Shown one piece after another: positions 1 through 37,864 of a DNA stretch of 64,000 nucleotides. Under the pieces are notes generated by a model that worked only from the letters and a program-made list of their open reading frames with translations, ran no database searches and was not told where the DNA came from. The stretch's first letter is position 1. Each line of letters starts with the position of its first letter. This DNA is from Fidelibacterota bacterium UBA2242 (lineage in GTDB: Bacteria > Fidelibacterota > UBA2242): assembly GCA_002347855.1 (NCBI GenBank), contig DDYE01000017.1:188839-252838 (forward strand), written 5' to 3'. The position numbers and the translations under genes are program-made.

Positions 1-2695
1 TGAGTTAAAGAATCGCTCTGATTATGAGTTTGCAAAACAGAAATTTGAAGAATTATGGGAAAATGCTGTTGATGTTAGCGAAAGATATATTCAGACAATA
101 AATGAAAGAACCTGGCTTAATCAAAATATTACCCCTTACGAACTTTATCTTAAATTTTTATACGAGTATTTTAAGGATGAACTCTCCAGAACTGATGAAG
201 TTTTTACAAAATATTTGCCTTCCGATTTCAAAAGGTTTGAATATCAAGAACAGGCAGTTCTGAATGCAAAGAAGATATTAGAAGAATATGGTGGAGCTTT
301 TATTTCTGATGTAGTGGGACTTGGTAAAACCTATGTTTCTACTATGCTTGCAGGACAGCTTGATGGTAGAACCCTTGTTATAGCACCGCCTGCGCTTCTT
401 AATAAAAATAATCCTGGCTCCTGGCCAAATGTTTTTTCCGATTTTCATATTCCAGCTGAGTTTGTATCAATTGGTAAACTTGATGAGGCAAAAAGGTTAG
501 TAGAGCTAAGAGAATATAGAAACATTATTATAGATGAAGCACACCGTTTCAGGACAGAAACAACTATCAGTTATGAAGACATTGCTGAAATTTGTCGCGG
601 GAAAAGAGTAATTTTGGTCTCTGCAACTCCTTATAATAACTCACCAAGAGATATCCTTGCACAGATTAAACTTTTCCAGAATGTAAGAAAAAGCACTATC
701 CCCGGCGTTTCTAATCTTGAGGAATTCTTTGGAAGACTTGTGGGAAGATTAAAAGAGGTCGACCGTCATAAAGATTATAATAAGTTCCTTGATATAACAA
801 AAAGTAATGCAAAAGAAATCCGTGATAGAGTATTGAAATATTTGATGGTTAGAAGAACAAGAACTGAAATTGAAAAATATTTTGCCGAGGATTTAAAGAA
901 AAACAAGGTTCAATTTCCGGAAGTAGAAGACCCAAAGCCATTTTATTACCAGTTAAACGATGATGAAGACAGAATCTTTATGGAAACTGTAAGGTTAATA
1001 ACTCAGAATTTCAAATATACCCGTTATATGCCATTACTTTATTTAACGAAACCCATTTCTCAACTGGAAGAGCAATCGCAAAGAAATATGGGCGGTTTTA
1101 TAAAAGTCCTCCTTGTAAAACGCCTTGAAAGTAGTTTTTATGCATTTAGAAAAAGTATAGACAGATTCATCCATTCCTATGAAATGTTTATTAAGGAATA
1201 TGAAAAAGGAAATGTATATATAAGCAAAGGATACATAAACAAAATTTTTGAGCTTTTGGAACAAGGAGATGATGAAGCAGTCCAGAAACTTATTGAAGAA
1301 GGAAAAGCAGAAAAATATGAAAGCAAAGACTTTAGACCTCATTTTGCGACGGACCTAAAAAATGACTTTGAAATTTTAAGACAGATAAAATCTATGTGGC
1401 AATCTATAAAAAGGGACCCCAAACTTGAAACCTTACTGGGAAATTTGAAAAAACACAATATCTTGAGAAATAAGAAAATAATTATCTTTACAGAGTCAAA
1501 AGAGACAGCAGAGTATTTGAATGAAAATATAAATAATGATGTAGGTAAAATTGCCCTTCTATTTCATGGCAATTCGCCAGAAGTAGTTAGAGACAGAGTT
1601 ATAGAAAATTTTGACGCAAGGGCAAAAATTAAAAAAGATGATTATAAAATACTTGTCTCAACCGAAGTTCTTTCTGAAGGTGTTAATCTTCATAGATCAA
1701 ACATAGTAATAAACTACGATATACCCTGGAATCCAACAAGGTTAATGCAAAGAGTGGGGAGAATAAACCGTATAGATACACCATTTGACAGAATTCATAC
1801 ATTTAACTTTTTCCCGACAAGACAGGCAGATTCTGAAATTGAACTTACAAACATTGCTCGTTCAAAAATAGAAGCATTTTTAACATTGCTCGGCGGGGAT
1901 AGTTCAATCCTCACTGAAGGAGAACCTGTTTCCTCTCATGAACTATTTGATAAACTACTTTCAAAGAAAACTATTGCCGAAGATGAGGAAGAAGAAAGCG
2001 AACTCAAGTATTTAAGAATTATTGAGGATGTCCGCAATAAAAATCCCGAACTTTTTGAAAGGATAAAGCATCTTCCTAAGAAGGCTCGTTCTGCAAAGAT
2101 ATTTTCTCAATCTCTAAAAGATATTGCTTCTGCTGATTCTTTAATCACTTTCTTTAGAAAGGGCAAGTTAATGAAATTCTTCCTTTCAAATAAAAGTTCT
2201 ACTGTTGAACTTGATTTCTTGGCGTCTGCAAAGATTCTTAAGAATTCATCAGATGAGAAAAGAACAAAACTACCTCTTGAGGTTTACTATGAACTCCTTG
2301 ATAAAAATAAAACAGCGTTCTTTAATGCAACTATTGAAGAAATTATAAGCACTCATAAGCGTGGTGGTTCAGATAGTCAAACCAGATTGTTAAAAATTCT
2401 AAAAGCAACACAAAAAAACAGCAAGCAACTGACTGAAGAGCAGGAAGAATACCTTAAAAAACTCATAACCCGGCTTGAAGAAGGCGCTTTACCAAAACAA
2501 ACAGTAAAGAAAACCCTCAATGCACTGAACAAACTCGCAAAAGATATACAAAATCCATTAAAAGTAATTGGAGTTTTACAAAGAGAAATCTCATTTACAT
2601 TTCTAAAAAGCCACTATGCAGAAACTTCTGCTATAACAGAAGGAAAAAGAGAGGTTATATTATCACTTTATTTAGCGGAGGAAAGCGATGAATAG
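1..2695 (+). CDS. SF2 helicase (DEAD/DEAH-box, SNF2/Res-like), 5'-partial; reading frame is open to position 2 so the N-terminus lies upstream of the window
   Basis: Walker A GLGKTY, DEAH box IIDEAHRF, motif III SATP, C-terminal helicase lobe with QRVGRINR; the annotated TTG at 215 is internal because the frame continues without stop to the window edge. Confidence 0.8.
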   Translation, partial: ELKNRSDYEFAKQKFEELWENAVDVSERYIQTINERTWLNQNITPYELYLKFLYEYFKDELSRTDEVFTKYLPSDFKRFEYQEQAVLNAKKILEEYGGAFISDVVGLGKTYVSTMLAGQLDGRTLVIAPPALLNKNNPGSWPNVFSDFHIPAEFVSIGKLDEAKRLVELREYRNIIIDEAHRFRTETTISYEDIAEICRGKRVILVSATPYNNSPRDILAQIKLFQNVRKSTIPGVSNLEEFFGRLVGRLKEVDRHKDYNKFLDITKSNAKEIRDRVLKYLMVRRTRTEIEKYFAEDLKKNKVQFPEVEDPKPFYYQLNDDEDRIFMETVRLITQNFKYTRYMPLLYLTKPISQLEEQSQRNMGGFIKVLLVKRLESSFYAFRKSIDRFIHSYEMFIKEYEKGNVYISKGYINKIFELLEQGDDEAVQKLIEEGKAEKYESKDFRPHFATDLKNDFEILRQIKSMWQSIKRDPKLETLLGNLKKHNILRNKKIIIFTESKETAEYLNENINNDVGKIALLFHGNSPEVVRDRVIENFDARAKIKKDDYKILVSTEVLSEGVNLHRSNIVINYDIPWNPTRLMQRVGRINRIDTPFDRIHTFNFFPTRQADSEIELTNIARSKIEAFLTLLGGDSSILTEGEPVSSHELFDKLLSKKTIAEDEEEESELKYLRIIEDVRNKNPELFERIKHLPKKARSAKIFSQSLKDIASADSLITFFRKGKLMKFFLSNKSSTVELDFLASAKILKNSSDEKRTKLPLEVYYELLDKNKTAFFNATIEEIISTHKRGGSDSQTRLLKILKATQKNSKQLTEEQEEYLKKLITRLEEGALPKQTVKKTLNALNKLAKDIQNPLKVIGVLQREISFTFLKSHYAETSAITEGKREVILSLYLAEESDE

Positions 2696-5600
2696 GGAGC
2701 AGGCAAAAAATATAATAACTGAAACCCTTGAAAATTCTTTTGATAAAAGTAAGTTCATCTATTTTCTCAAAAACCTCTTAAAATCTTTTGAAGAGAAATC
2801 TTCTGTCTATCAAGGTAACCATATCCCTGATGCCTTTGAACAATACATAAGTTCGTTAGAAAGGATTGGTAAATATATTTGTGATGAGAAAGAAATTGAT
2901 TTACTGATTGTCCAGCTAAAAAGAGAGACCTCCCTTGAGCGTGCAAGAACAATGCAGAGGAATTTTGTTGCCTGGTACCTTAAGGGAAGTAGAGGCGGAA
3001 AATTAAAAGATGCTGCGCTTGTTGCCTTTGTTTCACCCACGAGCGAAGATTGGCGTTTTTCCCTTGTAAAGATGGATTATCGCTTTGAAGAAACACCTTC
3101 CGGCAAAGTAAAAATTAAAGAAGAATTCACGCCAGCAAGAAGATGGTCTTTTCTTGTAGGTAAAAATGAAAAAAGCCATACCGCCCGGAACAGATTTATT
3201 CCAATACTTGAGGATGATGAAAAGCGACCTACTTTGGAAGATTTAGAACAGGCGTTTAGTGTAGAAAAAGTAACGGACGAGTTCTTTAAATCCTATAGAT
3301 ATGCTATAAATGAAGTAATAATAAAATCATTGAACAAAAAGGTAGACCACCAAATCAAACATTCATTTGCCCAGCAACTCCTTTCCAGAATTTTATTTAT
3401 CTATTTCCTTCAAAGGAAAGGATGGCTTAAATGGAAAAACTACGAACAGGATAAAAGTTATATTAAAAACCTCTGGCTAAAATATAAATCCTACAACTAT
3501 GAAAATACTTTTTATTCCCATTGGCTTAGCAGTCTATTCTTTGGTGCGTTTAATAAAAAATCTCAATTTATAAATCCTGATCTACCCGATGAGATAAGAG
3601 AATCTTTTATACAAATGCCTTTTCTTAATGGTGGGTTATTTCACAAAAACGAACTTGATGAAATAGGTTTTGATGTGCCCGATAATGTCTTTGAATGGCT
3701 GTTTGAGCCAAATGAAACTGACGAAGATTTGCACAAAGGATTCCTTGAAGTATTTAACTTCACAATTGACGAATCAAGCCCCGATGATGTAGAAGTTGCT
3801 GTTGACCCGGAAATGCTGGGAAAAGTGTATGAATCCCTGATTAACGAAGAAGAACAAGGTTTTGCTGGAATATTCTATACTCCTCTTGTGGAAATTGATT
3901 TTATGTGCAGATTATCTCTTGTGGAATATCTTTGCACCAGAACCCAAACAAGTAAACAGGATTTAATTGAACTGGTTTTTACTCTACCCGCCATTGATAG
4001 TTATCAAAACATAGAGAACCTAAGGAAAATCAAAAAAGCTTTAGATGATGTAAAAATAGTTGACCCTGCTGTTGGCTCTGCATCTTTCCTTGTAGGAATG
4101 ATGAATATTTTGGTTGAATTACACTCTGCATTAACAAAAAGAATAGAAGGTAAAGAAGAAAATCTTTTTGCACTGAAACAAAAAATAATACTTGAAAACC
4201 TTTACGGTGTTGATGTTAAAGACTGGGCAGTAATGGTTGGTGAACTTCGTCTCTGGCTTTCCCTTATTATTGAAACCGACGAAAAATTTATGGACATCTA
4301 CACTAAACCTCTTCTGCCTAATCTGACCTTTAAAATTCGTCAGGGCGATTCACTGGTTGAAGCAATAGGCGATGTATTTATTAACCTGAGAGGGAATGCT
4401 CTGAAAACAATTCCCAAATCTATTCAGCAAAAAATCTCTGAACTCATTGACAAAAAGGCTGAATTCTTCTCAGGTAAACGAAGTGCTGATTTGAAGGAAC
4501 AACACGAAATAGAAAATATGGAAGCAGGAATATTCAAAAAAATTTTACAGGTAAAAGTGGATGAGTTAAAAGGAAAGTTAACAGAGAAAAATAGATTATT
4601 AAAACAATTGAAAGGCTCAAAAAATCTTTATGGAGAAGAGGACGCAAAATCAAAACAAGAACAAGAAAAACTTTCTAAGGAAATTGAGCAACTGGAAAAT
4701 GAACTAAATAAATACCAAAAAGCAATCGATAGTATTGGTCAAAAAAGCAAAAAAGATTACTTCCTCTGGGAACTTGACTTTGCTGAAGTGTTTGCTAAAA
4801 ATGGCGGTTTTGACATTGTAATCGGTAATCCACCTTATGTGCGACAGGAACTCATTGCTCCACCACTTGAAAACGAAAAAGATTATTCTCCTGAGGAATG
4901 GCGTGAGTTAAAAAGACAGTATAAAGAAAAACTTATTCAAGCAACCCAAAATGTATGGCAAGATGTAAAAAGAATCGATAAAAAGAGCGACCTCTATGTT
5001 TACTTTTACTATCAAGGATTATCTCTACTCACCGACAACGGTATTTTCTGCTTTATTAACTCCAACAGCTGGCTGGATGTGGGTTATGGTGCAGGGTTGC
5101 AGGAATTTCTACTTAAAAATATGAAGCCAATTTATATCATAGACAACATTGCCAAACGCTCGTTTAAACAGGCAGATGTTAATACCGTAATTGTGCTTAT
5201 ACAAAAACCATCTGCAAGGACTGTAGGGGCTCAAAATTTTGAGCCCGAGCTATATAAACCAGTAAAATTTATCGCCTTCAAAAAGCCATTTGAAGAGGTA
5301 GTAGCAAACGGCTGTTTGCTTATGAAAGAGATAGAAAACACCACTAAGCCAGTGTTTAACAACCCGGTTTACAGAGTCTTTCCCAAAACCAAAAAAGAAC
5401 TCCTTGAAGAGGGAGTGGAATATCCCGACGAATCAGAATTAGAATTAAACCAAAGCCCCGAACAGCTTCCTTATGTTGGTAATAAATGGGGCGGTAAATA
5501 CCTGCGCGCGCCGGAGATTTATTTTAAGATTCTGGAAAAGGGAAAAGTAGGGGCGAAAGGCCGTTCGCCCCTACTGGTGCGATTGGGAGATATTGCTGAA

Positions 5601-6470
5601 GTGCGACGGGGATTTACCACAGGTGCGAATGAATTCTTCTATCTTAAACCAGTTGGAATGACGGTAAAGGAAGTGGTAAAGATAGCAGAAAAAAATCCAC
5701 AAGCACTCATAAGAGTAAAGAATGGTGCTGGCTGGGAGGGTGAGATTGAGGCAGAGTTTTTAAAGCCTGTGATTAAAAGCCCAAGAGAACTAAAAACCAT
5801 CATGGTAAGGATTGAAGACCTGAATTATCTCGTATTTATGTGCCACAAGAGCAAGAAAGAACTCAAAGGGACAAAGGCGCTGGAGTATATTGAGTGGGGA
5901 GAGAAGCAAAAATTCAACCAAAGACCGACTTGTAGAAGTAGGAGCTTGTGGTGGGATTTGGGGGAGTTATATTTTTTGATAATCTCGAAAAGATTTGTTG
6001 ATGAGAGTTTTTCATACTTTTATAATCAAAATAATTTTTTTGTTGGAGATACATTTTTCATTATTAATACTATAAATCCATATGATGTTTTAATAACTTT
6101 AAACTCAATTATCGGAAGTCTATTTACTGAAATTATTGGAAGAAAAAATATGGGTGAAGGTGTTCTTTTAATATATGGTCCTGAAATCTATAATATACTT
6201 ACTATTAAAAAACTTGACACTACTGATGAATTAAAACAAAAAGTCTTCTTTTCAATAATTAATAAAAATGTGTCCTCAATATTTAATGAAATATCTATAG
6301 ACAAGAATCATCCCATTCGTGAGCAGGAGCCCAATCCCTTGCCCGACCGTAAGGAGCTGGACGATATTGTTTTTGATGCTCTTGGCCTCACCGAAGAAGA
6401 ACGCAAAGAAGTTTACTGGGCAGTAGCGGAATTGGTAAAAGCAAGATTAGATAAGGCAAAGAGTGTGTGA
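2688..6470 (+). CDS. N6-adenine DNA methyltransferase, gamma class, Eco57I/PglX-like with C-terminal TaqI_C-like specificity region
   Basis: FYTP motif, SAM motif I VDPAVGSASFLVGM (about nt 4062), coiled-coil insert, motif IV GNPPYV (nt 4827-4838), C-terminal ...LGLTEEERKEVY... helix; ATGA start/stop overlap with helicase. Confidence 0.85.
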   Translation: MNREQAKNIITETLENSFDKSKFIYFLKNLLKSFEEKSSVYQGNHIPDAFEQYISSLERIGKYICDEKEIDLLIVQLKRETSLERARTMQRNFVAWYLKGSRGGKLKDAALVAFVSPTSEDWRFSLVKMDYRFEETPSGKVKIKEEFTPARRWSFLVGKNEKSHTARNRFIPILEDDEKRPTLEDLEQAFSVEKVTDEFFKSYRYAINEVIIKSLNKKVDHQIKHSFAQQLLSRILFIYFLQRKGWLKWKNYEQDKSYIKNLWLKYKSYNYENTFYSHWLSSLFFGAFNKKSQFINPDLPDEIRESFIQMPFLNGGLFHKNELDEIGFDVPDNVFEWLFEPNETDEDLHKGFLEVFNFTIDESSPDDVEVAVDPEMLGKVYESLINEEEQGFAGIFYTPLVEIDFMCRLSLVEYLCTRTQTSKQDLIELVFTLPAIDSYQNIENLRKIKKALDDVKIVDPAVGSASFLVGMMNILVELHSALTKRIEGKEENLFALKQKIILENLYGVDVKDWAVMVGELRLWLSLIIETDEKFMDIYTKPLLPNLTFKIRQGDSLVEAIGDVFINLRGNALKTIPKSIQQKISELIDKKAEFFSGKRSADLKEQHEIENMEAGIFKKILQVKVDELKGKLTEKNRLLKQLKGSKNLYGEEDAKSKQEQEKLSKEIEQLENELNKYQKAIDSIGQKSKKDYFLWELDFAEVFAKNGGFDIVIGNPPYVRQELIAPPLENEKDYSPEEWRELKRQYKEKLIQATQNVWQDVKRIDKKSDLYVYFYYQGLSLLTDNGIFCFINSNSWLDVGYGAGLQEFLLKNMKPIYIIDNIAKRSFKQADVNTVIVLIQKPSARTVGAQNFEPELYKPVKFIAFKKPFEEVVANGCLLMKEIENTTKPVFNNPVYRVFPKTKKELLEEGVEYPDESELELNQSPEQLPYVGNKWGGKYLRAPEIYFKILEKGKVGAKGRSPLLVRLGDIAEVRRGFTTGANEFFYLKPVGMTVKEVVKIAEKNPQALIRVKNGAGWEGEIEAEFLKPVIKSPRELKTIMVRIEDLNYLVFMCHKSKKELKGTKALEYIEWGEKQKFNQRPTCRSRSLWWDLGELYFLIISKRFVDESFSYFYNQNNFFVGDTFFIINTINPYDVLITLNSIIGSLFTEIIGRKNMGEGVLLIYGPEIYNILTIKKLDTTDELKQKVFFSIINKNVSSIFNEISIDKNHPIREQEPNPLPDRKELDDIVFDALGLTEEERKEVYWAVAELVKARLDKAKSV
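5547..5574. repeat. 28-bp REP-like palindrome copy 1 (GTAGGGGCGAAAGGCCGTTCGCCCCTAC, one arm mismatch), in frame inside the methyltransferase gene (encodes VGAKGRSPL)
   Basis: read directly; 14-bp arms. Confidence 0.9.
6403..6470. repeat. direct repeat copy A: last about 20 codons plus stop of the methyltransferase gene
   Basis: about 68 bp, repeated at 8755-8822 with about 4 mismatches. Confidence 0.9.
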
Positions 6471-6492
6471 AAAAAAATAAATAGGAGGTTAT

Positions 6493-8724
6493 ATGATAAC
6501 AAAAATAAAAATTGAGAACGTAGCAACTTATAAAGAAGCCTTAGAAATTGATAATATAAAGAAAGTTAACTTTTTCTACGGTAGTAATGGTAGTGGTAAA
6601 ACTATTTTATCAAAACTAATTGCTAATTCAGATTCATATAGTGATTGTAATATTGAATGGCAAAATAATACAAAACTAAAGAGAATTGTTTATAATGAAG
6701 ATTTTGTTAGGTCAGTTTTTTACCAAAACGAAAATTTTCCGGGTATTTTTACTATGGGAGAGGGAGCAAAAGATATTGAAGTGCAAATCGACCAGAAAAA
6801 TCAAGAAAGGGAAAAAATTCAAAATGAACAAACGAGTTTAAATAATACACTGAAACAAAAAAAGGTAGAATTAAATAATAAATCAGATGAATTTAAAGAA
6901 TTATGCTGGAGAAAAGTATATCAAAAATATCAAGATGATTTTACTGAAGTTTTCACAGGGTACCGTAATAACAAAAAAAATTTTGCTGAGCGTTTATTGA
7001 ATCAGTATGAATCAAATGAATCAGTATTAAGAAAAAATGAATACCTATTGGACCTATACAATCTTTTATTTAAAGAAGAATTAAAATCGATCAATCTATT
7101 AAATTTAATTTCAGATGAAGTGATTAAAGAACTACAAAAATTGGAGACAAATGAAATATTAAAAACCGAAATAATCGGAAAGAAAGATGTTGATATTGCT
7201 CGAATGATTGAAAAATTACACAACCATGATTGGGTAAGACAAGGAAAGAAATACTATGAAGAAAATTATGATGAAGAGAAAGGCTCTTATATATGTCCTT
7301 TTTGTCAGCAAGCAACAACAGAAGATTTTAAACAAAAACTTGAAGAATATTTTGATGAAACTTATGAAAAACAAGTAAAACAATTAGATGAGTTTATAGA
7401 AAAATATAACGAACTAAATAATAAATTGAATAAATACTTTGATGATTTATTAAATACTAAAGATAATAAATATTTTGATGCAAAAAAAGATGAATTAAAA
7501 AGCCAAATTGAAATCATTAAAGAGAAATTGAAAAACAATATTTTTCTGATAAATAAGAAAAGGGACAAGCCCAGCGAGGATATATCAATAGAATTTTTAA
7601 CTGATGTTATAGGTGAATTAAATAATTTGATTAATTCTATAAATGAAGAAATAAAAAAATATAATGAAATTGTAAATAATCAGCAAAATGAAAAAAACAA
7701 ACTTATTTCTGAAATATGGAAATTTTTCTGCAATGAAATTAGTATGGATATTAAAAGTTATTTGAGTGGTAAAAATAATATCGAGAAGGCGATAGACGAT
7801 ATCAAAAAACAAGTTGAAGAAAAAGAGACCAAAATAAAATGTATTACAAATGAAATATCAGAATTAGAAAAACAAATTAAAAGCATAAAACCAACAATTG
7901 ATGCAATAAATAAAGTTTTAGATAAGTTTGGTTTTAGGGGATTTAAATTAGCTCCAACTGAAGATGAAAAACACTATAAAATTATTAGAGAAGACGAGAC
8001 TTCTGCAAAAGAAACATTAAGCGAAGGAGAAAGAAACTTTATTGTATTTCTTTATTTTTATCATTTAATTCAAGGAGCATTGAATCCAGAAGAAAATATA
8101 AACGAACCTAAAGTCGTAGTTTTTGATGATCCAGTTTCAAGTCTTGATTCTGATGTATTGTTTATTGTAGCAACTTTAATTAAGGGTATTATAAAAGACA
8201 TAAGAGAGGGAAAAGGAAATATCAAACAGGTTTTTCTTTTAACACACAATGCCTATTTTCATAAAGAAGTCACATATTCATCAAGTCGGGATTATGGTCA
8301 AAATAAAAGAAATGACACAATGTATTTTATTATTAGAAAAGTAAACGGGATAAGTAAAATCGAAGAATATGAAACAAATCCCATTAAAACCACTTATCAG
8401 TTATTGTGGGATGAAATAAAAAATGGAAGAATAGACTGTGTATCTCTTCAGAATTCAATGCGGCGTGTTATAGAATTTTATTTTAATACATTGGCTGATT
8501 TAAAAGAAGAAGAGTTAATAAACAAATTTAACAATGAAACAGATAAGAAAATTTGTCGTTCATTAATTACCTGGATTAATGTTGGTTCGCATGATGCCTT
8601 TTTTGATATTGATTATTCGCCAAGTCCAGATGAAATTTCTAAATATAAAGATATATTTAAAAAGATATTTGAAGAAACTGGTCATATTTCACATTACAAT
8701 ATGATGATGGGGATTCCTGAATAA
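6493..8724 (+). CDS. AAA_13-type ABC ATPase, RloC/PrrC-like (putative anticodon nuclease)
   Basis: AGGAGG RBS at 6483-6488; Walker A GSNGSGKT (6580-6603); long coiled coil with CPFC zinc-hook-like motif (7294-7305); ABC signature LSEGE, Walker B VVVFDDP, H-loop LLTHN; C-terminal R-x3-E (RRVIE) followed 39 aa later by H (VGSHD). Confidence 0.6.
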   Translation: MITKIKIENVATYKEALEIDNIKKVNFFYGSNGSGKTILSKLIANSDSYSDCNIEWQNNTKLKRIVYNEDFVRSVFYQNENFPGIFTMGEGAKDIEVQIDQKNQEREKIQNEQTSLNNTLKQKKVELNNKSDEFKELCWRKVYQKYQDDFTEVFTGYRNNKKNFAERLLNQYESNESVLRKNEYLLDLYNLLFKEELKSINLLNLISDEVIKELQKLETNEILKTEIIGKKDVDIARMIEKLHNHDWVRQGKKYYEENYDEEKGSYICPFCQQATTEDFKQKLEEYFDETYEKQVKQLDEFIEKYNELNNKLNKYFDDLLNTKDNKYFDAKKDELKSQIEIIKEKLKNNIFLINKKRDKPSEDISIEFLTDVIGELNNLINSINEEIKKYNEIVNNQQNEKNKLISEIWKFFCNEISMDIKSYLSGKNNIEKAIDDIKKQVEEKETKIKCITNEISELEKQIKSIKPTIDAINKVLDKFGFRGFKLAPTEDEKHYKIIREDETSAKETLSEGERNFIVFLYFYHLIQGALNPEENINEPKVVVFDDPVSSLDSDVLFIVATLIKGIIKDIREGKGNIKQVFLLTHNAYFHKEVTYSSSRDYGQNKRNDTMYFIIRKVNGISKIEEYETNPIKTTYQLLWDEIKNGRIDCVSLQNSMRRVIEFYFNTLADLKEEELINKFNNETDKKICRSLITWINVGSHDAFFDIDYSPSPDEISKYKDIFKKIFEETGHISHYNMMMGIPE

Positions 8725-8754
8725 TTAAAATCATGCTTCTAAAAGTACAGGAAG

Positions 8755-8822
8755 GCAAAGAAGTTTACTGGGCAGTAGCGGAATTGGTAAAGGCAAGATT
8801 AGATAAGGCGAGGAGTGTGTAA
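8755..8822. repeat. direct repeat copy B: orphan duplicate of the methyltransferase 3' terminus, downstream of the RloC-like gene
   Basis: aligns to 6403-6470; in the methyltransferase frame encodes ...KEVYWAVAELVKARLDKARSV followed by a stop. Confidence 0.9.
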
Positions 8823-8878
8823 AGAAAAATGTTAATTCAAAAATTAAAATGAAATTTGAAATAAAATCGCAGAACAAA

Positions 8879-9487
8879 ATGAAATTCAATCCTGAAACCC
8901 ACCACCGCCGTTCTATCCGATTAAAAAATTATGATTATATCCAACCCGGTGCATATTTCATAACCATTGTAACCAATAAACGACAATGTTTGTTTGGCAA
9001 AATTGAAAATGGTGTAATGCGGTTGAATGAATTTGGGGAAATTGTTCGTGATGAATGGTTTAAATCAAATGAAATCCGGCGGGAAATTGTATTGAACGAT
9101 TATGAATTTGTTGTAATGCCCAATCATATTCACGGAATCGTATGGATTGTTGAAAACAATGACATGGGGACAAACGGTAATATCATTGTAGGGGCGAACG
9201 GCCGTTCGCCCCTACAAAAACAATCAAACAAAAACCAACCACCAACACATTCGGATTCCCCATTGATACGAATGTCCCCAAAATCAATTTCATCGTTTGT
9301 TGCCGGGTTCAAATCCGCCGTAACAAAACAAATAAACCAATTACGCCAAACGCCGGGCATTCCCGTTTGGCAACGCAATTATTACGAACATATCACCCGC
9401 AACGATGATGAATTACAACGAATTCGTGAATACATAATCAATAATCCAATAAATTGGGAACTGGACGAAAATTATGAACGAAATTGA
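8879..9487 (+). CDS. REP-associated tyrosine transposase (RAYT), IS200-like Y1 HuH family; probable start at second Met (ORF begins 8849)
   Basis: N-terminal HHRRSIRLKNYDY, HuH motif MPNHIHGIVWI, catalytic Tyr motif WQRNYYEHITRND; contains the perfect palindrome at 9188-9215. Confidence 0.8.
   Translation: MKFNPETHHRRSIRLKNYDYIQPGAYFITIVTNKRQCLFGKIENGVMRLNEFGEIVRDEWFKSNEIRREIVLNDYEFVVMPNHIHGIVWIVENNDMGTNGNIIVGANGRSPLQKQSNKNQPPTHSDSPLIRMSPKSISSFVAGFKSAVTKQINQLRQTPGIPVWQRNYYEHITRNDDELQRIREYIINNPINWELDENYERN
9188..9215. repeat. 28-bp REP-like palindrome copy 2 (GTAGGGGCGAACGGCCGTTCGCCCCTAC, perfect), in frame inside the RAYT gene between HuH and Tyr motifs (encodes VGANGRSPL)
   Basis: read directly; perfect 14+14 inverted repeat. 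Confidence 0.9.
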
Positions 9488-10377
9488 ATTGCATAAAACA
9501 TTAAACCAATTAGGCGAGGAATGGCTGAGTTCAAAAATTCAGCGGATGCGTAATCTATTGAAGATTGCCTTACCCGATGAAGCACTTTATCGCGAAATAA
9601 TGCTCTCCCTTGGCTATCCAAAAAACAAAGTTCAGTTTTTAGAATTGGCGCTCCTTTTACCCTACAAAGAAATTCAAAAACTCAAAACCCAACCACTCAT
9701 CGAGAAAGCACTGTTGTACAGGGCAGGATTTACACAAGACGCTTCTAATCTTCCGGGAGATTTTGACACCTCACTAAAACTTAACAATTCATACTGGACA
9801 TACAAATCAATTCGACCAGCGAACTTTCCAGATAAAAGAATAAAAGATTTTTCAGATTTGCTTTTTAAGACAACAGAAAAAGGAATATACAATTATTTCA
9901 AAAAGCAGATAGAGAAAAATTATACAGAGGTATATGATAAAACATCAGCAAAGAAAATAGTTGAAAAAATTATGTCGTTTAAAGGTATTGGGATTAGCAG
10001 AAAGAGAGAAATGTTTTTTAATATAATACTACCATTCTTTTTGTCGGATGAATCATTTAGTAATTATCATAGTTTTTTAATAAAACTTTTTGAAACACAC
10101 GCTTCCCTTGATGAAAACAGTAAAATTAAAAAATTTTATAAATTGGTAGGGGCGAACAGCCGTTCGCCCCTACGTCAACCAAATGAAAAAATTCAAATTT
10201 CAAATGCTAAGGAATATTTTGGTGCAATTAAATTTAGTGGTGGATAAAATCATTTCCGTAAAAAGGCAAAATAAAAACGCTGACACAAGTAACTGGGAGC
10301 GAGAGATAGACCAGGTAGTTTATAAACTTTATGGTTTGACAGAGACTGAGATAATAATAATAGAGGATTTTAAATAA
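9474..10377 (+). pseudogene. ORF of unknown function split across two frames; C-terminus resembles the terminal helix of Eco57I/PglX/TaqI_C-type modules
   Basis: frame 0 ORF 9474-10247 and frame +1 ORF 10183-10377; deleting the 28-bp palindrome at 10146-10173 joins them into one ORF (...KKFYKL/VNQMKKFKF...EREIDQVVYKLYGLTETEIIIIEDFK). Confidence 0.5.
10146..10173. repeat. 28-bp REP-like palindrome copy 3 (GTAGGGGCGAACAGCCGTTCGCCCCTAC, one arm mismatch) at the frameshift point of the 9474-10377 ORF
   Basis: read directly. Confidence 0.9.
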
Positions 10378-10644: not shown

Positions 10645-10872
10645 TTATCTTTCTCGTAACTGTGCACCTTCCTTTGATATGTAAGCCTCATAATAAATAA
10701 GATTCCAGTTTTTATTTTTATCTTTATGTTCCATATATCTTCGTTTTAAATCTTGTGTCCATCCAATGTAAATATTCCCATTTTTAGAATTCTTTAACAA
10801 ATACACATAATACATTTTGAAAGGGCGGGGTTCTGTAACCTGTTTAAGCGTCATTATTTCTTTTTCATTCAT
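10645..10872 (-). CDS. GIY-YIG nuclease family protein (small standalone; ORF extends to 10938, likely start at MNEKEIM)
   Basis: GIY-YIG motifs YYVYLLKN...GNIYIGWTQDLKRRYMEH. Confidence 0.65.
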   Translation of the reverse strand: MNEKEIMTLKQVTEPRPFKMYYVYLLKNSKNGNIYIGWTQDLKRRYMEHKDKNKNWNLIYYEAYISKEGAQLRER

Positions 10873-11544
10873 AAAGGCAATCCTTTTTTTAAAACATAAT
10901 CTTTTATAAAATCTGACTGTAATATACAAAAAATACAATGGTTGTCAAGAACAGTCCTGATAAAAATAAAATCCTTATAGGGTGGTGGGTGGGAATAGAT
11001 AGATAAACTTTGCCGATGCAATTGGCAGAGGGAAACTGAAACGCTTTCAGTATGGCAGGAAGTAAAGGGAGCAGTGCGAGGACGCAAATTGTGTCCAAGC
11101 CTGCGACTGTGATGCTATTTCTTTAAGTTTCTTTCTTTTGATTGGTGAATGGAATTTGGTAAAATTAGCGGAACGGTTCGTAGTGATTTTAAAAGCGGAA
11201 AGTAATAACGATTTTAGCCAGGTCAAGGTAAGGAAAATGCAGGTGCTTATATTTTAGAAAGTCTGAATATTCAAATTAACGCTGAACAGGTCGGTTGATT
11301 TATTAAAACAATTTGGAATATAAACCATCGTTCTCGATTGAGTAGATTTTGTCCGAGAGCAAGTCACTGAACCAGAATTTGGAACTTATATAGATGGCGA
11401 TTCTGGCAATCAGCGAATTCAGAGGTAAAGCGCGTCAGGTTGTTGCGGATCAGGGTCAAAGAGAAATACTTTCGCTTATTCTCAATTTTTGACGAACTTT
11501 AGGATGTACGTAAGCTTTATTAAATAATGTTAAAAGGAGATAGA

Positions 11545-13438: not shown

Positions 13439-13526
13439 GGAGAGGTGTCCGAGAGGTTTAAGGAGCACGCTTGGAAAGCGTGTGTAGGCTAAAACCCTAC
13501 CCGGGGTTCGAATCCCCGTCTCTCCG
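13439..13526 (+). tRNA. tRNA-Ser (anticodon GGA)
   Basis: acceptor stem GGAGAGG/TCTCTCC, anticodon loop TTGGAAA, long variable arm, T-arm GGTTCGAATCC; no encoded CCA. Confidence 0.85.
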
Positions 13527-13562
13527 CATAATTCACACAATCGTTCATTTTCAAGTTAAATT

Positions 13563-17536: not shown

Positions 17537-20245
17537 TTATTTCATCAGCAGTATTCTCTGGTTCGCTGTGTATTTTGGTGAAATCATCCGCACCAGATAA
17601 ATACCACTGACAACACTTGCCCCGGAATGATTGACGCCATTCCAGGTAATCGTGTAGTTACCCGCGGCATAACTGGTTTTAGTACTCCGCCAGATTTCAC
17701 GACCGGTCAGGTCGTATATACTGATTTGAACGTCAGATGCTTCCGGTAAAGCAAAACTGATGTTCGTTGTAGGATTAAACGGATTGGGATAGTTCGGTTT
17801 CAATTGATATTTATCCGGCAGAATGTCTGCCGTAGCAGGCGGAGCCGGTTGCTTCCCGAATGCGATTGGTTTGGCCAATTGCCAATCGACGGTTTCACCC
17901 ATTTCGAACTGCGCCATTTGGGTCAGACTGTAATCGGCATATTTGGCTTTCAACTGGTTTAAGACTGCCTGCGCCTCTTCTCTATTCCCCAGGTCAATGG
18001 CGTAGATATTGAAAAGGGTGAAGAGGGCTTTGTATTCGGCTTCTGAATCCGGATTCTCGCTGATCACGGTTTTTGACTTTTCGACAGCGGCTTTGAATCG
18101 CTTGCTGGTAATATCTTCACTAATCAATAACTCCAGCGCCATGGTGCGCAGATTCTTCGTACCGACATATTTCTGCAGATGCTCTTTTAGGTCGGTACTC
18201 TTCAATGCTCTTTTAGCAAAAACAGAACGTAGAAATGCCAGCGGGGCGTAGGGTGAATCGGGGTAATTCTGCAAGAGAATATTACAATTCTCTAATGCTT
18301 TGCGATATTGCAGGCTCTGCCAGAGTTCAGTCGTCTCCCGCCAGAGGGTTTCCACCGATTCTGCATCATCAAAAGGTAAGATGTTGATGTTTAAAGCCTC
18401 GGCCAGTAAACCGCCAAGAGTCTTCGCCAGACTGCTACCGCCGCCGGGATCACTGCTAAGGGGATAACGGTTATCAATGCTGGATGTGCCATCGGCATAA
18501 AAATCACTCGGCGGATAATCGCCCCAGAAATTCTTCTGGGCAATGATATTGGAGTAATTTTCTGCCCGGATATGGGCAAACTTATCTGTTGTAATGTCTA
18601 AATATATAGTATTATACCCGGCGTAACCATCCGAACTGAAACACGTTCCCAGGACTGATTCACTATGATCGTGGGTGTATACGGTTGCTGTTTGACCACC
18701 GATTATCCGGTTGTAACCCTGATAATCCTGAGAGCCCGGACCGATTGCCAGTGGACGGCTGTAATGGTCGGCGTCCAGCCCGTAGGTGAAACTGCCCTCG
18801 ATGGTATTGTTGTAGACGCTTGGTTCATCGGTGGCATAAACCTGAATCCCGGCTACTCTGGTCGAGCCACCGGAAGTGATCAGATTGTCGGTCATATCCG
18901 ACAATCCGGCGTAATAACCATAGATGCCACGTGTACAGGCGGTGATGGTATTTGTATTTACAACAGCGCTGTTCGAATTATTCAGATAGGCGCCGTAAGT
19001 GCAATTGCTGATCGTGTTATTGCTCAAAGTTGGAGAACCATAATAAGCATAGACGCCATAAGAACAATTGCTGATGGAGGAGTGACTGATTGACAGACTA
19101 CTGCTACTGGCATAGACGCCATAAGTAGCATTGCTGATATTGGCATACTGAATTGAGCCACTGCTGCCGGATTGATAACGGATTCCGCCCCAGGTGCCGG
19201 AGGAAGCGGTGTAAGTTGAATTATAAGAATTCAGTGTTCCGTAGACGTAGAGATATTTCCCGGATGCGAAAATCATTTGGGTATTGCTTTCGGTTTTGAG
19301 GGTTTTGCCGGAGGGGACGGTGAAATGATCAGCAAAGTTGTGCGTTCCGCGAATATGTACCGATTGCCCGCCGGAAGCGGCAGAGAATGCCGCGCTGATT
19401 GACGGATAGAGTCCATTAATAGTGGAACCGGTCTGGAGACGGATGTCGGGATTGAGGGTGGCGCCGTTTTGAATAGTGATCGTACCGTCTGTGGTTGTTA
19501 TGGTGTGGGAATTGAGATTGACGGTGGCTTTAGACTTTATTTGCAGATTACCACCAGATGGAACAGATACGTTTCCTATTATAGTATGAACCTTGCCACC
19601 TGATCCTATCCATGTTTTGGGATAATTCGAAAGTGTTCCGTAGTGAATAGTTTTGAGTTTTTTAAAATCATGTCCAAGGTTTTGTTTTAAATAATAACAA
19701 TCGTGATTTTTTTCATGTTGATATAATCCACAAGCTCCCCATTTGGAAACGTAGTCTCTACCACCTTCTATAGGACGTGGATAAGAATTTTGAATTTTTC
19801 TAACTGAGTGGTCATCATCTGTATACCATGAATGAGTTGCTTCAAATTCTGAAGCTGTTAAATATGATGGTTGTCCATCATTAGACCATGCCCCATCAGT
19901 CCAATAATAAGTTTCAACATCGTGATCTTCATGGGTTCCAATCCATACTTGTTCGTTCCCTTCAGAAACACTCCAGGCATAACCATGACAGTTATAGGTA
20001 TTGGAAGCGTTTCCAATTAGTACAGCATTTAGTTGATATGGTTCTATATAATAGTACTGTATATACCAGTGGCACCAAGCTATTTCACCATCAGACATCT
20101 CGGTTGGTGTATCAGCAGGAACAGGTCTTCCTTCAGGTGTCCTGACAATTGTATCTCCTGCAAATAAAATATTCTGAAATAGAAAAATAAATAATGTTAA
20201 GAGAAAAGCATATTCGTATATAATTTTATTAATTTTAACATACAT
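17537..20245 (-). CDS. secreted right-handed parallel beta-helix repeat protein with T9SS C-terminal sorting domain
   Basis: signal peptide; repeated NxTIxxCxYGxY beta-helix units; C-terminal KPNYPNPFNPTTNISF...IYLVRM T9SS CTD. Confidence 0.8.
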   Translation of the reverse strand: MYVKINKIIYEYAFLLTLFIFLFQNILFAGDTIVRTPEGRPVPADTPTEMSDGEIAWCHWYIQYYYIEPYQLNAVLIGNASNTYNCHGYAWSVSEGNEQVWIGTHEDHDVETYYWTDGAWSNDGQPSYLTASEFEATHSWYTDDDHSVRKIQNSYPRPIEGGRDYVSKWGACGLYQHEKNHDCYYLKQNLGHDFKKLKTIHYGTLSNYPKTWIGSGGKVHTIIGNVSVPSGGNLQIKSKATVNLNSHTITTTDGTITIQNGATLNPDIRLQTGSTINGLYPSISAAFSAASGGQSVHIRGTHNFADHFTVPSGKTLKTESNTQMIFASGKYLYVYGTLNSYNSTYTASSGTWGGIRYQSGSSGSIQYANISNATYGVYASSSSLSISHSSISNCSYGVYAYYGSPTLSNNTISNCTYGAYLNNSNSAVVNTNTITACTRGIYGYYAGLSDMTDNLITSGGSTRVAGIQVYATDEPSVYNNTIEGSFTYGLDADHYSRPLAIGPGSQDYQGYNRIIGGQTATVYTHDHSESVLGTCFSSDGYAGYNTIYLDITTDKFAHIRAENYSNIIAQKNFWGDYPPSDFYADGTSSIDNRYPLSSDPGGGSSLAKTLGGLLAEALNINILPFDDAESVETLWRETTELWQSLQYRKALENCNILLQNYPDSPYAPLAFLRSVFAKRALKSTDLKEHLQKYVGTKNLRTMALELLISEDITSKRFKAAVEKSKTVISENPDSEAEYKALFTLFNIYAIDLGNREEAQAVLNQLKAKYADYSLTQMAQFEMGETVDWQLAKPIAFGKQPAPPATADILPDKYQLKPNYPNPFNPTTNISFALPEASDVQISIYDLTGREIWRSTKTSYAAGNYTITWNGVNHSGASVVSGIYLVRMISPKYTANQRILLMK

Positions 20246-21006: not shown

Positions 21007-22017
21007 TTATTTAATCTTACCATAACGAAGAATAACTCCTTCTGAATTTGCATTTACTGGTTGTACTCCCACTGCCCATCCCAAATATTTATTGATAAAA
21101 CATAAAGAAGCGATATTATTCACATTCATCTCTCCTGGAAGATACTCCCATGTTAGTCCACCATCTGTTGTTTTAATAATTGCATACTTTCCTGCTCCCG
21201 GATTAGTGGCTAACCATCCGTTTAATGGATCGACAAAAAATAATTCATTAACACCTAAAGATGGTGGCCATGATTCTGCTGATCTCTGAATCCATGTATT
21301 TCCCCCATCAGTTGTCCGAAAAAATCCAAGCCAATCGTTATCATTACCTCCAACCCACCCATGGAATTGATCCACAAACTGAATTGATGTTAAATATGAA
21401 ACGTATGGCACGTTTAACTTTCTTATTGTCCATGTTAGTCCAATGTCTGTAGTTGATAGAATTGTTCCGCCAAAACCACACACCCAAATATTTTCTTCAT
21501 CAACTATCGAAATATGTGTAAGAGTATGTACATCTTGAGGTGCTACATCTTGCCAAGTTTCTCCTCCATCCTCAGTTTTAAGCAAAATACCAATACTACC
21601 CAAATCTCCTCTACCCCCTACAACAAAACCGGTGTTTTTATCTAAAAAATTAATATCACGATAACGTCCGCCTTTTAAATCATCATTGTATCCTAGCTCC
21701 CAATTTTTTCCACCATCTATTGTTTTTAAAATGGAATACCTCCCACAAATCCAACCGTTATTCTTATCCACAAAATCGACCGCAAATAAAGTCTCATTAA
21801 CCGGGCTTATCTGATTACCCCATGTTTCGCCCCCATCTTCTGAATTAAGAATTAGACCACTATCTCCAACGACCCAGCCATTATATTCATCTACAAAATC
21901 TACATCATATAACCTTGCCGTTATCCCGCTTTTAATCTTGGTCCAGACATATATCTCATTATAATTACTTATATCTTTACCACATCCAAAGATGATTATT
22001 AAACTAATAAGACACAT
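21007..22017 (-). CDS. BNR/Asp-box repeat protein (Ycf48-like beta-propeller), probable lipoprotein; ORF extends to 22158
   Basis: repeated DGGxTW motifs (DGGETW, DGGKNW, DGGNTW, DGGLTW); lipobox-like IFGC near likely start. Confidence 0.7.
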   Translation of the reverse strand: MCLISLIIIFGCGKDISNYNEIYVWTKIKSGITARLYDVDFVDEYNGWVVGDSGLILNSEDGGETWGNQISPVNETLFAVDFVDKNNGWICGRYSILKTIDGGKNWELGYNDDLKGGRYRDINFLDKNTGFVVGGRGDLGSIGILLKTEDGGETWQDVAPQDVHTLTHISIVDEENIWVCGFGGTILSTTDIGLTWTIRKLNVPYVSYLTSIQFVDQFHGWVGGNDNDWLGFFRTTDGGNTWIQRSAESWPPSLGVNELFFVDPLNGWLATNPGAGKYAIIKTTDGGLTWEYLPGEMNVNNIASLCFINKYLGWAVGVQPVNANSEGVILRYGKIK

Positions 22018-26546: not shown

Positions 26547-26749
26547 ATTATGAAAGAGTATGGCTCAACGAAAATTAATCCAAATTTGCTAGGAATATTT
26601 CCACCCTTGATCTGTGATTACTAAGGGTGGATACCATGTCTTGAAATCAGACATTTTTGCCCATTTTTACTCCCACTTATTTTTTACCTTAAAGCAAGGG
26701 ATAATTGGTTTTCATCGTCGTCAAGCCAAAATTACATATTAATCATTAG

Positions 26750-26885
26750 AGCATCTGCCAGCAGACCGCCAACTATCTTGCCCAGACTACTGCCGCCGCC
26801 GGGATCACTGCTAAGGGGATAACGGTTATCAATGCTGGATGTGCCATCGGCATAAAAATCACTCGGCGGATAGTCGCCCCAGTAG
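26750..26885 (-). pseudogene. orphan fragment of a beta-helix/T9SS protein gene
   Basis: about 100 bp nearly identical to 18427-18530; encodes ...WGDYPPSDFYADGTSSIDNRYPLSSDPGGGSSL... with flanking stops. Confidence 0.7.
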
Positions 26886-27088
26886 TTTTAAAAGTCTTTC
26901 AGATAAAGGGCATTAACCTCTCCTGCCCAGGCGGGATAAGTTTTGGAATGGCACCTATGAATCGAAAATGGGTGATATATCTGATGATTATCATGATGAT
27001 TGTTCCGTAATATATTCGATGACTATTTAATATTTGGACTTCGCCTTTAAGAGTGTAAATTTTGAAGTAATGTTAAGCGGGGTGTTAT

Positions 27089-37780: not shown

Positions 37781-37864
37781 GCCGAGGTGGTGGAATTGGT
37801 AGACACGCATGTTTGAGGGGCATGTGGGTGCAAGCCTGTACGGGTTCAAATCCCGTCCTCGGCA
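37781..37864 (+). tRNA. tRNA-Leu (anticodon GAG)
   Basis: acceptor GCCGAGG/CCTCGGC, anticodon loop TTGAGGG, long variable arm, T-arm GGTTCAAATCC. Confidence 0.85.

Follow-up and report, generated by a model that had tools for sequence, protein, structure and literature searches.

PLD nucleases with one HKD motif per chain, such as Nuc, BfiI and SauUSI, dimerise to form their active site. In type ISP restriction-modification (RM) enzymes such as LlaGI and LlaBIII, a nuclease, a superfamily 2 (SF2) translocase acting on double-stranded DNA (dsDNA), a gamma-class N6-adenine methyltransferase and a target recognition domain (TRD) are combined (PMC3874165). Here, we describe a locus in which a PLD nuclease is fused to a SNF2-type motor and paired with a separately encoded, predicted gamma-class methyltransferase, the pair being followed by the gene of a predicted RloC-type tRNase. 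The locus occupies positions 1-8724 of a 64,000-nucleotide stretch of DNA from Fidelibacterota bacterium UBA2242 (NCBI GenBank assembly GCA_002347855.1, contig DDYE01000017.1, positions 188,839 to 252,838 of the forward strand), hereafter referred to as the window. An earlier note, made from the letters of the window, had taken the three genes for a candidate defence cassette of helicase, methyltransferase and ATPase with no recognisable restriction endonuclease, and had mentioned the designation Hma for such layouts.

PrrC is a short ABC-type anticodon nuclease (ACNase) without a zinc hook and is always found within a type I hsd locus. RloC is recognised by the motifs of an ABC ATPase, by a coiled-coil insert bearing a CxxC zinc hook and by a C-terminal Arg-x3-Glu-x36-52-His triad, often with a Ser before the His (PMC2610378). 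It is a tRNase under the control of its zinc hook and of a DNA-dependent ATPase, and DNA breaks activate it (PMC2610378, PMC3458546, PMC3874168). Hma systems are composed of the DUF499 ATPase HmaC and the helicase HmaA, which carries a C-terminal PD-(D/E)xK nuclease (PMC8565338, PMC11232893, PMC12839542), while the type of the methyltransferase HmaB is disputed, being given as m5C (PMC8565338) or N6 (PMC12839542). For a characterised system of PLD-SNF2 protein plus methyltransferase, our literature search returned only a contextual mention by Milman et al. 2023 (PMC9881135), who describe a type II RM coding sequence (CDS) homologous to Cj0031 together with an adjacent CDS containing PLD (cd09178) and SNF domains.

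Results

The nuclease of the locus is a PLD domain on the helicase

The three open reading frames (ORFs) of the locus, as defined from the ORF list and its translations, are co-oriented and tightly linked on the + strand, just as the earlier note had them:

1..2695, + strand: helicase ORF (partial), open from base 2 and running off the 5' window edge; C-terminal 897 of 1091 codons
317-331, + strand: helicase motif I, GLGKT, invariant in an alignment of 20 homologues
533-544, + strand: helicase motif II, DEAH, invariant in the same alignment
2688..6470, + strand: methyltransferase, predicted modification/specificity (M/S) subunit, 1260 aa
6493..8724, + strand: RloC-type ATPase gene, 743 aa

The part of the helicase that lies within the window shows Pfam matches to Helicase_C, ResIII and SNF2-rel_dom and contains both motifs, in agreement with its previous assignment as an SF2 helicase truncated at the 5' end by the window edge. 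In order to recover the complete gene, we used an exact-protein look-up of the methyltransferase, which led to three public contigs carrying the same locus (L001-L003). Contig L001 is 100% identical to the first 300 bases of the window in an alignment, and in all three contigs the helicase comprises 1087-1091 aa, with PLDc_2 placed at the N-terminus by precomputed Pfam annotation. The full gene (L001 6733-10008, 1091 aa) was translated and rescanned, yielding PLDc_2 at aa 51-213 and RE_NgoFVII at aa 142-217, followed by ResIII/SNF2/Helicase_C. The PADLOC model 'HKD+Snf2' (PDLC01075) matches the full protein over profile positions 25-918 of 948 (E = 3.5e-50). Base 1 of the window corresponds to codon 195 of the helicase (194 codons in), the final strand of the PLD domain, ...NFEFNV, having ended directly before it. 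The 'missing' nuclease is this PLD domain, encoded just upstream of the window edge, and none is visible on the helicase within the window because the window starts directly past it. The earlier statement that no PD-(D/E)xK, HNH or PLD domain occurs in the window is thus literally true but an edge artefact, and the claim that the cassette has no recognisable restriction endonuclease does not survive the upstream sequence, which had been set beforehand as the test and shows a PLDc_2/RE_NgoFVII-type HKD domain on the helicase. A nuclease domain that does lie within the window, the predicted C-terminal ACNase (RNase) module of the ATPase described below, had been overlooked.

In an alignment of 20 helicase homologues of different phyla, H156, K158 and G177-S-S-N180 are invariant, as are GLGKT and DEAH. 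With the HKD and helicase motifs thus conserved, both the nuclease and the motor look catalytically competent. Each helicase chain carries a single HKD motif.

Helicase and methyltransferase form an obligate pair

One genome per GTDB species was scanned for the helicase, which revealed at least 592 relatives in bacteria and archaea; 80 of these loci were fetched and analysed by tblastn with the three window proteins and by clustering of all ORFs. In all loci that extend far enough (68/68), a methyltransferase homologue aligned from residue 1 is found downstream on the same strand, and the 12 of 80 loci without a methyltransferase match reach no further than ~850 nt beyond the helicase gene. 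Other protein families are each confined to at most 12 of the 80 loci, and there is no conserved third gene. Helicase and methyltransferase are therefore an obligate two-gene pair, and the three-gene system of the earlier note has to be reduced to these two. The two genes overlap by 8 nt, ATGAATAG, instead of the 4-nt ATGA reported before, with the helicase stop codon TAG at 2693-2695, the methyltransferase ATG at 2688 and GGAGGAAAG 5' of the overlap. Such an overlap fits translational coupling.

Conservation of the helicase far exceeds that of the methyltransferase. Identities of 74-89% are seen in metagenome-assembled genomes (MAGs) and isolates labelled as Aminicenantes, Syntrophales, Thermodesulfovibrio, Petrotoga, Caldisericum, Desulfurella, Bacteroidota and Verrucomicrobiia, and of ~50-58% in archaeal MAGs, and this high identity across distant phyla points to frequent horizontal transfer under strong constraint. 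In a plasmid collection, relatives were found only at identities of up to 36%, under the generic annotations 'helicase-related protein' and 'N-6 DNA methylase'; on a plasmid of Parabacteroides distasonis, a relative with 30% identity retains the pair, annotated only as 'SNF2-related protein' plus 'N-6 DNA methylase'. PADLOC has models for both proteins, so that this kind of PLD-SNF2/methyltransferase pair is already catalogued computationally, with no biochemical study found in the literature searched.

Two of the related loci contain inverted partial copies of the methyltransferase gene beside a serine resolvase/invertase gene (L075 17039-18616 and L077 12593-14143). This shufflon-like arrangement, which has no counterpart in the window, likely serves TRD shuffling and thus phase-variable specificity, consistent with Milman et al.

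The methyltransferase gene carries a conserved N-terminal domain and a putative ON/OFF switch

The features of the methyltransferase gene referred to in this section are as follows:

2688..3242, + strand: N-terminal alpha/beta domain (aa 1-185), highly conserved
2706..2713, + strand: 8-nt unit AAAAATAT at codons 7-9, indel hot spot
4062-4079, + strand: motif I, DPAVGS (aa 459-464), from a motif scan
4827-4838, + strand: NPPY (aa 714-717), from a motif scan
5546..5575, no strand assigned: GC-rich perfect palindrome (REP-like), in frame within the CDS, encoding VGAKGRSPLLV

Judged by its profile matches and motifs, the second gene is predicted to encode an N6-adenine methyltransferase of the gamma class that belongs to the Eco57I/MmeI family and has a target-recognition region at its C-terminus, much as first described. 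The protein matches the Pfam families Eco57I (1.2e-28) and MmeI_Mtase (1.6e-11), precomputed Pfam annotation adds M_Eco57I_C at the C-terminus, and motif I stands ahead of NPPY, which is the gamma-class order. Its top PADLOC match is the REase_MTase_IIG model PDLC03596 (E = 2.8e-131).

Conservation is highest in residues 1-185, with ~65% identity to the query as compared to ~48% across residues 1-450, and many N-terminal positions are invariant or almost so among 70 homologues. AlphaFold2 modelled the N-terminus with confidence, at a pLDDT of 82.7 for residues 1-450 and of 87 for residues 1-185, and a Foldseek search against the PDB gave no match (E >= 0.04). Likewise, residues 1-380 matched no Pfam model and no PDB-sequence profile. 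A conserved (D/E)xK triad was not found in the N-termini of the 70 homologues, in which K78 is K in 46/70 and Q in 15/70 and position 76 is variable. The N-terminal domain may dock the helicase, i.e. the putative restriction (R) subunit, which is the explanation that we favour, or it may be a degenerate endonuclease-like domain; a second, cryptic nuclease at this place is unproven.

In two other assemblies of the same locus, AAAAATAT is doubled (+8 nt; L095 and L096, around 3747-3762), leading to a frameshift of the methyltransferase gene at codon 7 beside an intact helicase gene. Two further alleles of the same locus are in-frame +9-nt variants at the AAAAATAT site (KNI and KQY). Together, these indels look like the products of a slipped-strand ON/OFF switch.

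The 11-aa insert VGAKGRSPLLV, encoded by the palindrome, is missing from three methyltransferase homologues compared. A 28-nt palindrome, GTAGGGGCGAAnnGCCGTTCGCCCCTAC, is present in three copies, all within the genomic island described below: one in the methyltransferase CDS (5547-5574), one at 9188-9215 and one at 10146-10173. Of the latter two, one falls within a RAYT-like ORF (8849-9487), the other on the end of a DUF2851 ORF. A further copy is located 3' of the RloC gene in L084. The distribution suggests that these are repetitive extragenic palindromic (REP) elements which the neighbouring REP-associated tyrosine transposase (RAYT) has mobilised.

The third gene is predicted to encode an RloC-type anticodon nuclease

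The product of the third gene matches Pfam AAA_13 along its full length (E = 1e-173), which, together with the motifs listed here, confirms its description as a RloC-like AAA_13 ATPase. All of these motifs are invariant in 30 homologues:

6580-6603, + strand: Walker A, GSNGSGKT (aa 30-37; G30, K36, T37)
7294-7305, + strand: zinc hook, C268-P-F-C271
8017-8031, + strand: ABC signature, LSEGE (aa 509-513)
8119-8133, + strand: Walker B, D545-D546
8242-8250, + strand: switch His, H585
8461-8484, + strand: ACNase residues R657-x3-E661
8584-8592, + strand: S699-H700

From these positions, the protein would consist of an ABC ATPase head that is split by a coiled-coil/zinc-hook insert and followed by a C-terminal ACNase domain, the coiled coil being deduced from the position of the insert and from weak matches to coiled-coil families at aa 375-472. 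The triad R657-x3-E661-x38-S699-H700 fits the published spacing (PMC2610378), and the gene has all sequence hallmarks of RloC, i.e. its product is predicted to be a wobble-nucleotide-excising tRNase. Several of its homologues are indeed named 'wobble nucleotide-excising tRNase' by the Joint Genome Institute. The best PADLOC model, PDC-S06 (PDLC04890), aligns query residues 1-741 with profile positions 1-724 of 732 (E = 7e-254); PDC-S06 is an untested defence candidate, PDCs having been predicted from 'guilt by embedding'. Against PDB sequences, only a Rad50-like ABC tail was matched (E ~0.004). We rejected an identity with PrrC, as the CxxC insert is present, the host locus is not of type I and the PADLOC PrrC model matches only the C-terminal third of the protein (aa 470-729, 3e-12).

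The RloC gene was acquired separately from the pair

The RloC gene follows the methyltransferase gene after a gap of 22 nt with GGAGG placed 5 nt ahead of its ATG, so that the gap and the ribosome binding site (RBS) are as the earlier note had reported. The gene has a GC content of 0.259, compared to 0.335 for the helicase gene, 0.361 for the methyltransferase gene and 0.44 for the rest of the window, and it is bracketed by an 80-nt direct repeat:

6399..6478, + strand: copy 1, comprising the last 70 nt of the methyltransferase CDS, the stop codon and 8 nt
8751..8830, + strand: copy 2, 93% identical to copy 1, just past the RloC stop codon

Copy 2 encodes the C-terminal 23 residues of the methyltransferase and reads EGKEVYWAVAELVKARLDKARSV* in frame. 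In related loci, an AAA_13 gene directly follows the pair in only 2 of the 39 that are testable, i.e. that contain a full-length methyltransferase gene and at least 1.5 kb downstream of it (L004 and L018). Seven RloC homologues could be placed on contigs, in the following contexts (percentages give the identity to the RloC of the window):

63%, metagenome contig L087: behind the helicase-methyltransferase pair
54%, Petrotoga mobilis SJ95: behind the helicase-methyltransferase pair
63%, at a contig end: behind the same kind of methyltransferase
56%: inside a type I hsd locus
51%: behind a type I-like R plus M/S pair
39% and 39%: each alone

Its low GC content, the bracketing repeat, the co-occurrence in 2/39 loci and the other contexts of its homologues demonstrate that the RloC gene was acquired separately and inserted behind the pair. 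The variety of contexts identifies RloC as a modular add-on, matching the literature on 'restriction-linked ORFs', and the RloC sub-clade shows a clear liking for this type of RM.

The genes around the pair in the related loci are variable and mostly of defence type, and the defence context proposed for the cassette holds. Proteins with AlbA_2/Schlafen plus HATPase_c_4 were found in 12 loci, mostly encoded between helicase and methyltransferase, and the others include MNT/HepT, SIR2_2, a Piwi plus SIR2 pair, a Ymh-family protein, AbiJ-like proteins and MORC-like GHKL ATPases. In several loci, such insertions are followed by a copy of the 3' end of the methyltransferase gene:

L004: three copies in succession, the first behind RloC, the second behind a Ymh-family gene and the third behind AlbA_2 plus a 114-aa ORF
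L084, L085 and L087: one copy each, after RloC
L006: copies after Piwi plus SIR2 and again after MNT/HepT
L042: one copy, after an AbiJ-like gene

The copies of the window, L004 and L084 are 93-96% identical to the local methyltransferase end over 55-80 nt; in L085 and L087, only 23-24 nt match the local end, with a protein-level match of ~64-65%. The methyltransferase ends of different loci are nearly unrelated. Since the copies match the local end and not those of other loci, the repeat arises locally and is not brought in by the cassette. Apart from one 29-nt case (L027), genes inserted between helicase and methyltransferase were essentially never flanked by copies of the helicase 3' end.

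The locus lies in a low-GC island

The GC content ranges from 0.26 to 0.38 across bases 1 to ~12000, as opposed to ~0.44-0.45 in the remaining window. In the part upstream of the window (L001 4970-6552), this island begins directly behind genes for tRNA-Cys and tRNA-Leu and contains, just 5' of the helicase gene, a remnant of an rve_3 integrase and an excisionase-like HTH_17 gene of 48 aa. The genes for DnaK and ClpB are situated outside the island. Bases 1-8724 most probably represent two functional modules within this genomic island, the helicase-methyltransferase pair and RloC. Promoter and terminator scans were uninformative, with counts at the level of shuffled sequence.

A small ORF with a GIY-YIG domain is located at the island edge (10645-10938, - strand; L001 17958-18185), between the DUF2851 gene and a beta-lactamase-family gene, and is 75 aa long in public gene calls. 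ARAGORN placed a tRNA-Ser(GGA) at 13439-13527, while an Rfam scan at gathering thresholds gave only a tRNA at 37781-37864. Unrelated repeats of the window are found at 18381-18983, 22281-22580 and 26736-26887, forming a 300-nt pair (89%) and a 152-nt pair (88%) at spacings of 3.6-8.4 kb. A 35-nt unit occurs five times (21148-21854), at 20-22 kb, where the GC content is low (0.34) and the GC skew strongly negative.

Discussion

The locus is best explained as a two-subunit, ATP-dependent RM system resembling types I, III and ISP, with a PLD nuclease-motor and with RloC as an abortive-infection backup, and we put the probability of this explanation at roughly three in four. The M/S subunit would read a short asymmetric site and methylate the host DNA. 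At an unmethylated site, it would recruit or license the R subunit, probably through its conserved N-terminal domain, and the R subunit, consisting of the PLD/HKD domain and the SNF2-type dsDNA translocase, would then move along the DNA at the expense of ATP. As there is one HKD motif per chain, two R subunits would be needed, which would join their PLD domains into one active site and cut where two complexes meet, fitting translocation-collision cleavage. The nuclease would thus parallel BfiI and SauUSI, and the logic of the motor that of type ISP, I and III enzymes. Indirect support for a dependence of R on M comes from the frameshift alleles: a frameshifted methyltransferase gene beside an intact helicase gene should be tolerated only where the nuclease-motor depends on the methyltransferase for finding its targets, since an autonomous nuclease without its methyltransferase is expected to be lethal, an argument that holds equally for phase-variable type III mod genes. 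RloC would be co-transcribed with the methyltransferase and kept latent, by analogy to characterised RloC and PrrC, and would cut tRNA anticodon loops and halt translation once a failure of restriction is signalled by DNA damage or by an anti-restriction factor of a phage.

Several points weigh against this explanation. The two assemblies with frameshift alleles may share one population and thus may not be independent, and no biochemistry for the helicase-methyltransferase family was found in the literature searched. Moreover, the three closest RloC homologues examined (54-63% identity) all follow a methyltransferase of this kind, in two cases as part of the full pair, and a functional coupling of RloC to the RM system that is tighter than 'independent module' implies is possible. 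A bolder proposal goes further in this direction: the pair would be a distinct class of ATP-dependent RM, the methyltransferase 3' end a recombination landing pad for backup cassettes, every inserted cassette ending in a fresh copy of the local 3' end, and RloC would be wired to the RM system as PrrC is to EcoprrI. The cassettes with such ends are RloC here and short prokaryotic Argonaute (pAgo) plus SIR2, MNT/HepT, a Ymh-family protein, AbiJ and AlbA_2/Schlafen elsewhere. We regard the proposal as a whole as tentative and rather doubtful.

Alternatively, the 1260-aa protein might be a self-sufficient type IIG/IIL enzyme that, like MmeI, DrdV and Cj0031, unites an N-terminal PD-(D/E)xK nuclease with a gamma methyltransferase and a TRD, in which case the PLD-helicase would be an accessory or independent protein, e.g. 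a SauUSI-like type IV nuclease or a processivity factor. The REase_MTase_IIG model is its top PADLOC match and aligns query residues 1-385 with profile positions 1-399, and Milman et al. call such CDSs type II RM homologous to Cj0031, with the PLD plus SNF gene adjacent. We nevertheless consider this unlikely, as the 70 homologues show no conserved (D/E)xK triad, the first 380 residues lack any Pfam or PDB-sequence profile match, and the 68/68 pairing together with the 8-nt overlap argues for one enzyme with the helicase. A single Hma-like system of three components with an obligatory ATPase could be read from the co-orientation and closeness of the genes, from the 22-nt gap and RBS ahead of the third, and from the same gene order in Petrotoga mobilis SJ95, the metagenome contig L087, the Aminicenantes locus L004 and L018. 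The ATPase, however, is missing from 37/39 testable loci, is flanked by repeats of the methyltransferase 3' end with a GC content 8-10 points lower, appears to be a complete RloC with an effector domain of its own and has homologues in other contexts, and the DUF499 ATPase that is the hallmark of Hma is absent, all of which makes this reading very improbable. The Hma designation was rejected on the profile level as well: HmaC is not among the 15 PADLOC matches of the ATPase (AAA_13/PDC-S06 instead), and HmaA aligns only to the generic helicase core (aa 548-798, profile 360-622 of 1176), the nuclease being here an N-terminal PLD domain. For HmaB, the best 25 of 49 PADLOC matches contain no such model.

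There is hardly any chance that we are dealing with a fragment, or a minimal relative, of DISARM class 1 (DrmD plus DrmMI) or of a DUF499-centred type-2 BREX-related (BR) system, acting in a BREX- or DISARM-like manner. Partial matches to DrmD (1.7e-35), DrmMI (6.5e-22) and PglX models were obtained, and type-2 BR does have an HKD-SNF2 helicase and an N6-methyltransferase. The NCBIfam scores, however, are far under the cut-offs (DISARM_DrmD 136.9 bits versus 610; PglX 32-53 bits versus 400-900), DrmA/DrmB, PglZ/BrxC, DUF499 and DUF3780 are all absent within 10 kb in L001-L003, and no third gene is conserved in the 80 loci. With generic, sub-threshold profile matches and without the hallmark genes of DISARM and BREX, we rejected both identities. 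Type-2 BR was rejected for the lack of DUF499 and DUF3780 in the same 10 kb and of any third family in the 80 loci, in spite of the fitting HKD domain N-terminal to Swi2/Snf2 and the N6-methyltransferase. Type III, in which Res bears its PD-(D/E)xK nuclease at the C-terminus and Mod is of the beta class, was rejected by architecture, given the N-terminal PLD nuclease and the gamma-class, Eco57I-type methyltransferase.

A false lead is thereby removed: the cassette is not a non-canonical system devoid of a nuclease, and the apparent absence of a nuclease was due to the window edge. The pair is widespread, with at least 592 relatives at the level of GTDB species and PADLOC models at hand, yet no characterised member was found in the literature searched, and biochemical work on it would show by what means a PLD nuclease, a SNF2 motor and a separate methyltransferase/TRD subunit are coupled. 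The locus is also a clean example of a predicted abortive-infection tRNase bolted onto an RM operon. The most novel remainder is the repeat-bracketed cassette structure behind the methyltransferase gene, and the repeat scars may show the route by which defence genes become embedded.

Compared to known systems, the locus shares with type ISP enzymes the nuclease, the SF2 dsDNA translocase, the gamma N6-adenine methyltransferase and the TRD, and the same logic of an asymmetric site, ATP-driven translocation and collision cleavage would be expected (PMC3874165). Type ISP enzymes are, however, single polypeptides with an Mrr-type PD-QxK nuclease, whereas two polypeptides with a PLD/HKD nuclease and a SNF2-like motor are found here, and the methyltransferase has an extra conserved N-terminal domain; by architecture, we therefore rejected type ISP. 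Type IIG/IIL enzymes (MmeI, Eco57I, DrdV, Cj0031) resemble the M/S subunit in having a gamma N6-adenine methyltransferase and a TRD in one chain, but act alone with a clear N-terminal PD-(D/E)xK nuclease, in contrast to the lack of a conserved triad and the PLD-helicase upstream in 68/68 informative loci. The use of an HKD/PLD domain as DNA cutter is shared with SauUSI and BfiI/NgoFVII, and SauUSI likewise fuses PLD N-terminally to an SF2 helicase; SauUSI is, however, a modification-dependent type IV enzyme without a methyltransferase partner, and BfiI has no motor.

Hma and the DUF499-centred BR systems (type-1 and type-2) also combine a helicase with a methyltransferase and often host embedded defence genes, and type-2 BR has an N-terminal HKD nuclease on its Swi2/Snf2 helicase, but their defining DUF499 AAA+ ATPase (and, in type-2, DUF3780) is absent here and the ATPase of the locus is an unrelated ABC/AAA_13 protein of RloC type. 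DISARM class 1 has a SNF2 helicase (DrmD), a large N6-adenine methyltransferase (DrmMI) and, in the system, a PLD nuclease (DrmC), whereas here DrmA/DrmB are absent and PLD is fused to the SNF2 protein. The third gene product has the ABC motifs, the CxxC hook and the triad of RloC from Geobacillus kaustophilus and, like PrrC of EcoprrI and some RloC proteins, is linked to an RM system that is predicted to be ATP-dependent. It differs from them in that the linked system is a PLD-SNF2/Eco57I-type pair instead of type I or III, and in its length of 743 aa versus 804.

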